Assembly (NCBI GenBank): GCA_964016885.1
Contig: OZ024741.1
Coordinates: forward strand, 297,786,001 to 297,850,000
DNA length: 64,000 nucleotides
Source of the DNA: Eledone cirrhosa
Lineage: Eukaryota
Direction of reading: 5' to 3'
The notes under the pieces are model-generated. The model was not told the origin of the DNA. It saw only the letters and a list, made by a program, of their open reading frames with translations, and made no database searches. The position numbers and the translations under genes were made by a program. Positions within the stretch are counted from its first letter, which is position 1, and the number at the start of each line of letters is the position of its first letter. Positions 1-5,412 of the stretch are shown in pieces.

Positions 1-43
1 ACCTATATATATATATATAATTCAAATATATATATATATATAT

Positions 44-101
<58 letters not shown>

Positions 102-162
102 TCATATATATATATATATATATACATTGGACGGATAGGTGTCCTCATCTGGTTTTGTTGTT

Positions 163-209
163 AACACAACGTTTCGTCTGATCTACCCTCCAGCCTTCAT
201 CAGGTGTCC
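163..209 (-). ncRNA. Hammerhead ribozyme motif, inverted copy of 513-559
   Basis: Reverse complement of 513-559 with one helix II mismatch (CAGAC instead of CAGCC). Confidence 0.7.
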
Positions 210-512
210 TAGTGATGTTATTATTAACGTTTGTTCAGGTCACTGCCTAGAATTGTACACGGAATCTTGAGGTTAGTAGCCCGCTTTTTAACCACTTTTT
301 TCTCGTGAAAAAAAAAAAATTTTTCTGCTTCTTTGTGGAAGGATAGAAAAATATCAGTTTATAAGCCCTAAAAATTCACGAGAGAAAAAAGAAAGAAAAG
401 AAAAAAAAAGAATTTCACGAGAAAATGTGGTTAAAAAGCGGGCTACTAACCTCAAGATTGCGAGTACAATTCTAGGTAGTGACCTGAACAAACGTTAATA
501 ATAACATCACTA

Positions 513-559
513 GGACACCTGATGAAGGCTGGAGGGTAGATCAGCCGAAACGTTGTGTT
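513..559 (+). ncRNA. Type I minimal hammerhead ribozyme (Penelope-like)
   Basis: GGACAC-CUGAUGA-A-GGCUG(loop)CAGCC-GAAAC-GUU|GUGUU. Intact core, 5-bp helix II, helix I GACAC/GUGUU, palindromic AACGUU helix III. Confidence 0.8.
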
Positions 560-705
560 AACAAAAAAAGATGAAGACACCTATCCGTCCAATGTATATA
601 ATGTAAATGTAAGGGAGATAACCAACTTTATTGACAATCCTTATAAAAAAGGGAGATAACCAACTTTATTGACAGATATAAACATCAGATTCATTTGAAG
701 ATAAA

Positions 706-2069
706 TCTCTAATATTATCGTTTATTTCTTGTTTATTCTTTTTGCACTTTCAAAGTTAAAAAAACACTTGTTGTTTTAACTTGTTTCACTATATTAAGTG
801 TTAATTTTCGCGTTAAGGGCCTAATCTCGCAGCAGACTCGAATTGACGAGATTTTGATGATGGTTTGTTTATTTTTAGAACAATCGTTATGGGACTTTCC
901 ATTCAAACCATTGGGACCTACAACTTTTACATTTTTAAAACTTTCATAAGCCATGTTGACACTCAGACTGGTCATGACGGATACCCACTATATCGCCGGA
1001 GAAGACCCGAAGATGGTGGATTCACAGCAAGGGTTGGCAAACATGAGGTTGCTGGATATCCACGGATATATAAATCTATTGATACTGTATGTGATCCACA
1101 GGATGCGGTCAATTATCCAGTTGAATTTCTAAATACTTTAAATCCTCCTGGTTTACCTTCTAATACATTGGTTCTGAAAGAGGGAACGCCAGTTATTTTG
1201 CTGAGAAATATCACTCCTCCAAAACTATGCAATGGTACACGCCTTGTGGTTAAAAAACTGCCTCCACTTAGTATTGACGCTGCCATTCTATCCGGATGTG
1301 GAAAAGGCGAGGATGTGATAATAACAAAAATTAGCCTGACTACATCAGGCGTGGATACTCCCTTCTCCTTTCGCCGAACCCAATTTCCCCTTCGTGTTGC
1401 TTTTGCGATGTCCATAAACAAGTCGTAAGGTCAAACTCTGTCCGTCATTGGAATTCACTTGGATGAACCTTGCTTTTCGCACGGACAATTCTACGTTGGC
1501 TGCTCACGAGTTGGCAGTAGAGATAATCTCTTTGCGTTTGTTCCGAAAAGAAAAACAAAGAATATCGTCTATCCCGAAGTGCTTTAGTGTTAACAAAAAA
1601 ACTTATTACAGCTCTGCCTTGACTTCACCTTACTCATTACAAAACGTACCAATAAATATGTCATGCAGGATATTTTGGATTATAAGTTCAAAATTTAACC
1701 ATACACAGCAAAGGATGATCTCAAAGAATAGATTTTCTCTTATTCTACTCTCATTGTTTTTTTGTTTGTATACAACTCTGCTTTCATTACAACTTTTTGT
1801 ACTTTAGCAAAACTGCCTGTTTTTTTTACAGATTTGCAACGTGTATTGTCTTTAATCATTTGTATAACTACATCCTGTTCAGTGTTTTCCTTCATTATCA
1901 ACATAGTTTTATGTGTACAAAGATTGCATTAAAGATTCGTTTGCATTAATTATTGAAGTCTTCTGCTTATTTTGACAGGTTGGGGACAAATAATGTTCTT
2001 CTTTTACTTCCTAGCTGTATATTCTTAGCATAATTTCAAACCCCCGGCAACGCCGGGTAAATCTGCTAG
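706..2069 (+). mobile_element. Internally deleted Helitron with Pif1-helicase remnant
   Basis: 865-1590 encodes YPLYRRR..., then YPVEFLN..PPGLP..LLRN..KLCNGTRL..RTQFPLRVAFAMSINKS*GQ..FSHGQFYVGCSRV. 3' hairpin cccggc-aac-gccggg plus CTAG at 2066-2069, followed by T. 5' TC end at 706 is tentative. Confidence 0.85.
865..1590 (+). pseudogene. Helitron RepHel (Pif1 helicase C-terminal motifs), disrupted
   Basis: Conserved Pif1 motifs with an in-frame TAA in KS*GQ and a large deletion between YPLYRRR and the helicase C-terminus. Confidence 0.85.
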
Positions 2070-2095
2070 TATATATATATATATATTTTTTTTTG

Positions 2096-2232
2096 CAGCA
2101 AAGAGTTACGGCCTTTTATGGTCTGAGTTCAAATCCCGCCGAGGTTAACTTTGCCTTTCATCCTTACGGGGACGATAAAATAAAGTACCAGTAATACACT
2201 GGGATAATTGCTGGCCTTGTGCCAAAAGTAGA

Positions 2233-2237
<5 letters not shown>
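2096..2237 (+). mobile_element. tRNA-derived SINE family A, 5'-truncated
   Basis: ctgagttcaaatcccgccgaggttaactttgcctttcatcc...gataaaataaagtaccag core, which recurs many times in the window. Confidence 0.8.
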
Positions 2238-2296
<59 letters not shown>

Positions 2297-3856
2297 TAGA
2301 GGAGGATGAACTCCACCAGGTTTAAACTGCTCAAAACGTCATGTTACGACAGCGCCACTACGAGTCAATCAGAGGCTCATAGCAAAACATGAGTAAGAGT
2401 TTCTAATATATGAACAAGATAATTGTGGCTTGTCGAAGTTGATAGAATATAGTCATACATTGTCGCTAAGACATGATATTTAGTCATTTTATAAATCTTG
2501 GTCTCACTAATAACAATTTATGTTCTGAATTTGTGGTGGTTCGTTATTAGAGCGTTGTAATGATCGGATGCTGAGAAGTAGTCAGTTGAATTGCTGCCAT
2601 TAATTTCACCTGTCATCAACGTTACCTCCACTATTGTGTTGAGCTGATATGGTTTTAACCGGTTGCCAAGCTTGATATTGTTTACTTATATAATCACCAT
2701 ACTTTTCTATGGATGTTTATTGAGACCTAACGAAAAACCATTAAATGGGCCATGGTTTCAACAAAACATGATATTTACGAAACTTGTATTTTAGGCTTTC
2801 CGTTATGTAGAAACTTATACCACTTACTCTGTTGCTATCGTAGTCGTTGCTGTTTGTTTTATTATTATTAATTAATTCATTTATTTATATTTCCTATGTC
2901 TGTAAATCATTAAGAGCAATGTGCAGCAAGCCACAAGGTACATAGATAATTAAAACTCAGTGCTGCAATTCCAATTCGCCATCGTACTATCCTTTTATGA
3001 AACTGCGTCTCTTCTTTTACTTGTACACAGGCGACTTCTCCAAGAGAGAGAGGGGGGAGGGGAGTGTGTGTGATTGGTAGGGTGTGATAAAGATATATCG
3101 ACCACAGTACTGGACTGGTACTTTTTTTATCGACCTCGAAAGGATGAAAGATAAAATTGACCTCGGTAGGATTTGAACTCAGAGCGTAGACAGTTTGAGC
3201 GAATACCTCAATGCATTCTGTCCGTTCTACCAACTCTGCCATATGCACCTGTACATATTTACAACTTTATACAGTGATCTATCGGCAATTAGAATGGACC
3301 TCCATAGGTTTTGACGATGAGTGTACTATTGTTTGATCAACAAACAGCCTACTCGCAAAATTAGCATGTAAGTGGCTGAGCATTTTACTGATATGTGTTC
3401 CCATAAAGTAATTCTCGGGAGTAATCAGTGTGTGTGCAACAAGGCTGGCCTTTTTAACTAAAAGTACAATCTATCCAACGGGTTTCGAAAGAGTTTCCAT
3501 CTACTCGATTTCACTCAAAAGTTATGGGTCGAACCAAGACTATGAACGCAGTTGGATCAAACCCGCGATCTAATGATTTCAAGGCAAGCTTATTAACTAT
3601 TCAGCTATGCAGCAGCCATATAGCGGGAGTTAAGTATCACAGCACGATACCAGGATAAGTGTCCCAGTGATGATGCAAAGATACGCCAATCTTTAGTGTG
3701 ATAGCATGCTCCCGTAAGCATTTGTGACATTTATTTTGGTGCTCACCTGACAGATAACTAAACAACACGTACGGTTACAATTTCTATCAATGTTCGTCCA
3801 TTAAGGTCTTCTATAACTCAGATGTTGCTATGAAAGTAAGATAGGATATGTTTAAC

Positions 3857-4041
3857 CAGACCTGTCAACTCTCCCCGTGCGACCGGGATATCTCCCACCC
3901 ATGTTCGGGTGGGGGAGAGATGTCATCTCTTATGAAAATGGGTATAGCTTTCATTATGTAAAATCTCCCCCATTTTGCCTCATTTCTCCCCGTTTTTTTC
4001 ATGGTACCCCTCGTTTGGGTTTTCAGAGGTTGGCAGGTCTG
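3857..4041. mobile_element. MITE with imperfect TIRs (cagacctgtcaactct / agaggttggcaggtctg)
   Basis: TIRs present; a second copy lies in opposite orientation at 6241-6405. Confidence 0.8.
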
Positions 4042-4982: not shown

Positions 4983-5069
4983 TACAAGCCAAAATATCGC
5001 ATGAATAAGCACAAGCTTAGATTGTCTCTAAATGAATAAAAATAAAAAATAAAAATTAATTAAAGTAAT

Positions 5070-5412
5070 AATTGTTTCTACTTTAGGCACAAGGCCAGCA
5101 ATTACCCAGTGCATTACTGGTAGTTTATTTTATCGACCCCGTAAGGATGAAAGGCAAAGTCAACCTCGGCGGGATTTGAACTCAGATCGTATTAAAGTAA
5201 TAATGGTTTCTAATTTTGGCACAAGGCCAGAAATATTTTGTTGAGGAAGAAATTAATTTTATTGACCCCTGTATTTGACTGGTACTTTATTTTATTTACT
5301 TCGAAAGGCGAAGATAGCGTCAGCGGGATTTGAACTTAGAACATATAAAAACCGAGAACGAATACTGTTAAACATTTCCCCGGCACTCTAACGAACTTGC
5401 CACTCATCGCCT
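5070..5412 (-). mobile_element. Two tandem copies of SINE family A
   Basis: Reverse-complement core ggatttgaactcag / gatgaaaggcaaagt / aggcacaaggccagcaatt. Confidence 0.8.

Follow-up and report, generated by a model that had tools for sequence, protein, structure and literature searches.

The window analysed here, a 64,000-nucleotide stretch of the Eledone cirrhosa genome, carries a palindrome of two outward-pointing arms of ~180 nt each. We conclude with high confidence that this palindrome represents an autonomous Penelope-like retrotransposon (PLE) inserted in 5′-truncated, inverted form. In the pseudo-LTR (pLTR) of this element a decayed tRNA-derived head is linked to a hammerhead motif. 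The arms likely arose when the element's own reverse transcriptase (RT) made copies of two short stretches of a single source RNA, which were joined head to head. A self-comparison of the window recovers the arms as inverted repeats at 153-300/422-569 (148 nt, 96% complementary) and 119-159/560-600 (41 nt, 93%), bearing out the outward orientation described in an earlier note on this DNA. The window copy keeps the last ~290 nt of the element on the plus strand along with ~190 nt in inverted orientation, and is made up, with its flanks, of the following parts:

5..118, no strand: (TA)n/(CA)n microsatellite read from the sequence, an AT-rich target into which the left end of the element merges
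119..309, minus: left arm, an inverted pseudo-LTR copy that starts at the tRNA-like head and ends without the optional tail
238..309, minus: putative tRNA-derived head of the left arm, with a 5′ acceptor-strand remnant at 303-309 suggested by eye
163..208, minus: minimal type I hammerhead of the left arm, with a G-A mismatch in helix II; predicted cut after 168
310..336, no strand: A/T-rich inversion-junction filler of 27 nt
337..371, plus: 3′ end of the RT/GIY-YIG ORF (KDRKISVYKP and stop; last codons 339-371, stop 369-371)
372..426, plus: A-rich spacer with repeated TCACG units
414..484, plus: putative tRNA-derived head of the right arm; an A run replaces the 5′ half of the A box; B box at 462-472
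485..513, plus: AAT-rich linker from head to hammerhead
514..559, plus: minimal type I hammerhead of the right arm, with palindromic AACGUU at 549-554; predicted cut after 554
522..608, plus: start of the element ORF, from the ATG in the CUGAUGA core as far as the short 3′ end, the tail being absent
609..2070, plus: Helitron-like repeat, a neighbour outside the element that the junction interrupts; it contains a Pif1 2B domain at 1141-1425

The right junction cuts the Helitron-like repeat at an ATGTAA microhomology, while the left end runs into the (TA)n. The palindrome had been described as devoid of an ORF, a description contradicted by the last codons of the element ORF at its centre and by the opening codons of that ORF (ATG at 522) in each arm. 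Both arms of the window copy have an in-frame stop at codon 6 (537-539) in common.

The Helitron-like repeat has 1462 first-look candidates in the genome, and its Pif1 2B domain is recognized with E 7.8e-12; that it is a Helitron, with a 3′ hairpin/CTAG, is our assumption. Copies of another dispersed short repeat, presumably SINE-like, lie in both orientations at 2117-2238, 3096-3193 and 5059-5350 of the window.

Parent element and its genomic copies

The parent element is represented by L065 (G000:C2:119922000-119930000), the sole full-length copy that we found, which is decayed in that stops and frameshifts interrupt it. It comprises an inverted 3′ piece, a pLTR starting at the head, the ORF and a second pLTR. 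The ORF begins with the ATG within CUGAUGA and continues through the tail, an N-terminal domain, the RT and the endonuclease to end in ...RKISVYKP. The unit of the element accordingly reads head, linker, hammerhead with the start ATG in its core, RT, GIY-YIG, stop, A-rich spacer and head again. This confirms the link to Penelope and the inverted insertion that the earlier note had suggested and, with head-hammerhead pLTRs flanking an ORF, supplies the autonomous PLE with the same end for which it had advised searching. The 5′ part of the ORF is covered by just 1-3 copies, and its 3′ end sits upstream of many genomic arms.

The protein matches RVT_1 with E 3e-06, under the curated cut-off, and its best, albeit weak, PDB match is telomerase RT (E 0.014); it has 30 longer homologues with identities of up to 71%. 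A Pfam search of the protein did not match the GIY-YIG domain, while the GIY-YIG/CCHH residues align in the endonuclease part. By this aligned motif the element has the architecture of an EN+ PLE, namely a single ORF with the RT followed by a C-terminal GIY-YIG. PLEs of the EN+ Penelope/Poseidon type have a CCHH motif inside the endonuclease and lack the upstream CX2-5CxxC linker (PMC8557442); by eye, the endonuclease of the element has CxC plus two histidines and no upstream cysteine cluster. The hammerhead lies inside the pLTR, as in other PLEs, and L065 combines tandem pLTRs with an inverted 5′-truncated copy. A tail of ~30 nt at one end of inverted pairs is a further PLE signature (PMC8557442): among 56 inverted pairs of a biased set of copies it is present at one end in 45, at both in 4 and at neither in 7, the last including the window copy, which in this respect counts against our interpretation. 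Judged by its sequence, the element belongs to the PLE class on every feature tested, and its motifs place it in the Penelope/Poseidon type.

The part of the ORF after the tail matches the N-terminal domain of the relative P0003 (47% identity, E 5e-28). By eye, P0003 (a relative at 55% identity) seems to start at a Met further upstream and to translate its hammerhead region in a different frame, suggesting that start-codon use varies among such elements. Other PLE-like families in the genome (L137-L145, ~33% identity) have many copies and open frames of up to 923 aa, and look younger than the family of the window element.

A similarity search of the 3.0-Gb genome gave at least 43 matches, with the best 40 of 160 candidates scored; many of these lie in inverted pairs with differing spacers. 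An exact 21-mer of the hammerhead core retrieves 75 genomic arms, as against none for the reversed control. All 75 were classified, and they constitute our sole unbiased set; a larger set of 92 clusters is biased, including protein-selected loci and some insertions split in two. Left out of the counts were L004 (a duplicate of L065), L137-L145 and L149-L164 (other families and tRNA matches), and BLAST pieces below 78-80% identity. Among the 75 arms, 23 are collinear with the ORF and run on into it, 54 belong to inverted pairs whose breakpoints vary, and 5 stand alone (solo) and start at the head; L047, a sixth arm with the solo label, comes from an ORF-bearing insertion that was split. A head-pattern scan of the genome yielded 66 matches, with the 13 new ones that were checked being ORF-linked, inverted or truncated, or solo in 3 cases. 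When contigs from metagenomes, viruses and prokaryotes were scanned by pattern, there were no matches. The copies diverge by 3.7% from the family majority.

The 5′ starts of the arms, measured from the GTGG of the head, are unevenly distributed: 22/75 fall at -45..+17, none at +18..+29, 22/75 at +30..+56 and 8/75 at +57..+90. At the head (-45..+17) the rate is 0.078 per 10 nt at risk versus ~0.02 in the ORF. The strongest hot spot is that at +30..+56 (window 457-483; 0.122 per 10 nt), which covers the T-arm/B-box region with its many short palindromes and might reflect stalling of the RT, fold-back or the end of an RNA. The spacer between the ORF stop and the head varies from 14 to 119 nt across 47 ORF-collinear arms; it displays TCACG units in repeated form and, in places, runs of G. 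The RT switching templates, from the 5′ end of the RNA to an A-rich 3′ end, or simple instability of the A runs, could account for this.

Hammerhead motif and tRNA-derived head

The right arm contains, in order, CUGAUGA (519-525), a bulged A526, helix II (527-531/542-546), GAAACGUU and helix I (514-518/555-559), with GAAA at 547-550. Folding predicts pairing probabilities of 0.91-1.0 for helices I and II. With the core nucleotides, both helices and a palindromic helix III all present, this is a minimal type I hammerhead of the dimer type, as the earlier note had it, and both the AACGUU palindrome and the predicted cut after 554 can be read as given there. The note had placed a complete hammerhead in each arm; in the left one helix II has the G-A mismatch. 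An 18-mer of the hammerhead core occurs twice in the window at ≤3 mismatches, versus 0.02 expected. Neither a hammerhead nor a tRNA was matched when the window and three stretches within it were scanned with Rfam. Across copies the core is not better kept than its flanks (17/698 versus 280/7993, p=0.16), against the conservation that had been anticipated and in keeping with what the earlier note had itself named as evidence against its reading, although no selection on the ribozyme core would be expected in copies that are dead.

RNA transcribed through the whole locus would form a single ~180-bp hairpin (-331 kcal/mol predicted). The ribozymes being on opposite strands, one transcript carries a single sense ribozyme, buried in this hairpin; on this model, self-cleavage of the window copy through a cis dimer would not occur. 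By eye, other PLE-like families of the genome have the same hammerhead core with differing helix II sequences. Further minimal hammerheads of this kind are found in L141, L205, L206 and L207, that of L141 lying 351 nt upstream of a long PLE-like ORF. Elsewhere, a single arm contains nine tandem 65-nt hammerhead units (L133:1275-1977; G000:C23, about 19253861-19254418), an array like that of retrozymes that could allow dimers to form in cis, and L126 has three similar repeats.

The head was examined by aligning the family majority sequence in register, from the D loop to the T arm, to 16 genomic tRNA-model matches. Its best score is 51, as compared to a mean of 32 and a maximum of 47 for 500 dinucleotide shuffles. 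Control segments do not rise above their shuffles (151/500 and 277/500 reach their scores), and 8/500 shuffles reach the score of the reverse strand of the head. The signal comes from three SINE-like heads, L162-L164 (47-51), with the other 13 tRNA matches scoring 30-39, within the range of the shuffles. This comparison, made solely through the family majority sequence, points to a tRNA-derived head that is closest to tRNA-SINE-like heads. The tRNA-like head of the earlier note thus stands at the level of the family, while in the window itself neither Rfam nor ARAGORN (0 tRNA genes) finds a tRNA.

The head is decayed: an A run occupies the place of the 5′ half of its A box, and among 71 scored heads the B box has a mutated form in 46, is otherwise changed in 23 and is intact in 2. 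In the right arm of the window the B box (462-472) has an A at the invariant T55 position. These calls use the A- and B-box consensus as we take it to be. Contigs of three related organisms contain the same head preceded by an intact A-box half, resembling by eye the SINE-like head L163; one related run has an intact B box (loose ends), and in run X22 contigs span the head to the ribozyme. The window's own genome gives no match to the intact-A-box head at ≤1 mismatch. Contig depth, which is not copy number and comes from runs whose RNA status is guessed, is 3405-4012 at the head versus 3065-3376 at the ORF 3′ end in X2, and 1655-3948 versus 1538-1752 in X9. This similarity weakly favours an autonomous sister element over a free SINE. 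X2 and X9 have, relative to L065:4918, an extra segment of ~35 nt between the head and the hammerhead, with what by eye is a second B-box-like motif. We found no report of a tRNA-derived PLE pLTR in the open-licence literature searched; Repbase/Dfam or the supplements of papers may list the family.

Formation of the insertion and rival readings

A route for the formation of the palindrome is offered by PAc of Anolis carolinensis, whose protein type nicks AT-rich DNA, extends both strands and initiates internally at two sites that define the tail (PMC11167929). By this precedent, the protein of the window element would have nicked the AT-rich target and extended both strands, with reverse transcription beginning internally just 3′ of the hammerhead to give either the short end (~600) or a tailed end. 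One cDNA would have reached the 5′ end of the RNA, located at the head, and run off there, giving the left arm; the other would have passed through the spacer into the end of the ORF before stopping, giving the right arm; and the two would then have been joined via the 27-nt filler. Since both arms have the codon-6 stop, the source was likely defective and mobilized in trans. Rare variants common to both arms of a pair (21 in 36 pairs versus 0.023 per pair across insertions) indicate one source or later conversion; fold-back of a single cDNA, or gene conversion between the arms, would also give such shared variants in place of the two-cDNA route.

To the interpretation as a truncated PLE insertion we append a tentative proposal, which we hold to be possible though unlikely, that the head is or was an internal Pol III promoter transcribing the whole 2.5-kb autonomous unit. 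The full-length copy begins at the head, the 5′ junctions of 22/75 arms cluster there, and the heads of related organisms retain an intact A-box half and, in one run, an intact B box (loose ends). Moreover, TTTT is absent from the sense strand of the ORF majority and from 2331 nt of in-frame natural segments, where 3.76 are expected (P=0.009); Phe codons are TTT:TTC 3:14, as compared to 79:64 for other T/C pairs (p=0.004); and nine other PLE ORFs of the genome are without such a bias (all P≥0.09). The clustering of junctions at the head together with the lack of TTTT thus suggests a Pol III-driven autonomous lineage. However, the depletion weakens under stricter nulls (P=0.07 for a dinucleotide shuffle, P=0.11 for a codon shuffle), and its sample is one family with segments from two copies, L065 itself having one TTTT as a minority letter. 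When the family multiplied in this genome, half of its A box was already lost and its B box mutated (46/71 heads, 2 intact); the A runs and the T-arm hairpin could by themselves produce the clustering of junctions; and the hot spot at +30..+56 is stronger than the cluster at the head. Further, the Penelope of D. virilis has a LINE-like internal promoter (PMC2377424), the autonomous partners of TRIMp3 elements must, it is argued, use Pol II (PMC10886601), and the translation of an uncapped Pol III RNA lacks an explanation. In its fullest form, and with the same reservation, one may speculate that a Penelope lineage captured a tRNA-SINE head, was transcribed by Pol III end to end and had TTTT purged from the 2.5 kb of its sense strand, with its short copies as the direct raw material for PLE-mobilized ribozyme SINEs in related species.

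The earlier note had instead regarded the palindrome as a non-autonomous, Pol III-driven SINE. Such a separate tRNA-headed hammerhead SINE, moved by a PLE RT, appears highly improbable to us. In its favour are the tRNA-derived head itself, the five solo, head-started arms, the intact-box version of the head, for which the summed depth of contigs is high in related organisms, and the precedent of Pol III hammerhead SINE-like repeats in Schistosoma (PMC6765202). However, SINEs are short (<700 bp) non-autonomous retroposons and not truncated coding elements (PMC3531059), whereas the window copy has ORF codons at both its ends and 23/75 arms of the family run on into the ORF. Internal A and B boxes are not intact, with half of the former replaced and the latter intact in 2/71 heads, and the intact-box head is not found in this genome. 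A fixed 5′ end and target-site duplications are hallmarks of SINEs. Six solo copies have neither a fixed 5′ end nor poly(A) and no consistent target duplication, their flanks sharing only AT-repeat matches or one 12-nt match. The head depths in X2 and X9, which are close to those of the ORF 3′ end, fit truncated autonomous copies, depth being a poor measure. There is no SINE subfamily among the arms of this genome. The arms are very probably the pseudo-LTR of the autonomous element seen in L065, and the label non-autonomous, which fails for the family, may hold narrowly for the window copy with its codon-6 stop, as it was likely moved in trans.

Long inverted arms and TA-rich ends would suit a MITE with long terminal inverted repeats and a TA target duplication. 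This reading can be set aside with near certainty, as spacers and arm starts differ in every copy, the tail is one-sided in 45/56 pairs and the interior is RT/endonuclease ORF sequence.

Relation to known systems

The closest counterpart is PAc of Anolis carolinensis, which like the window element has a single ORF with an RT together with a C-terminal GIY-YIG, pLTRs, an ORF start in the hammerhead with the cut 26 nt downstream (32 nt in the window element), an optional tail of 30-40 nt and AT-rich targets (PMC11167929). The PAc account, in excerpt, mentions neither a tRNA-derived pLTR head nor a TTTT-free sense strand, both of which belong to the window element (PMC11167929). The hammerhead shares with the minimal hammerheads of metazoan PLEs the lack of loop 3, the palindromic 15.2-16.2, the bulge before helix II, G10.1-C11.1 and a 5-bp helix I, while its helix II is of 5-6 bp as against 7-8 in the published PLE versions (PMC4209133). 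Dual minimal hammerheads on opposite strands, 100-700 bp apart and derived from truncated PLEs, are already known (PMC4209133).

SINE-like hammerhead repeats of Schistosoma similarly have a Pol III-type promoter before the hammerhead; however, these are non-coding tandems, whereas the head described here belongs to a coding PLE with copies dispersed as inversions (PMC6765202). A comparable acquisition is seen in the TRIMp3 elements Cassandra, Helenus and Ajax, which have a small-RNA-derived Pol III promoter in their terminal repeat, possibly via insertion of a SINE, although these are non-autonomous LTR elements under ~1.3 kb, unlike the window element (PMC10886601). Non-LTR retrozymes consist of pLTR-derived hammerhead units comparable to the 65-nt array in L133, whereas the window copy is an inverted pair and not a tandem array (bioRxiv 10.64898/2026.07.22.740005). 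The excerpts of PMC13282606 and of this retrozyme preprint do not mention a tRNA-derived head. By analogy, the window copy would work like other truncated PLE ends, and its promoter might resemble that of the Schistosoma repeats or of TRIMp3.

Thus, the class of the element is already known, and what appears new is the putative tRNA-derived head on the pseudo-LTR, an unusual 5′ portion that was perhaps at one time its promoter. Were the Pol III proposal true, it would run counter to the general expectation of Pol II transcription for autonomous retrotransposons, assign a promoter to the PLE pseudo-LTR and raise the question of how an uncapped RNA with its start codon in a ribozyme core is translated. 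The window copy cleanly illustrates that Penelope copies, when truncated, can pass for SINEs or MITEs, and the set of 75 arms maps the points at which reverse transcription starts and stops.
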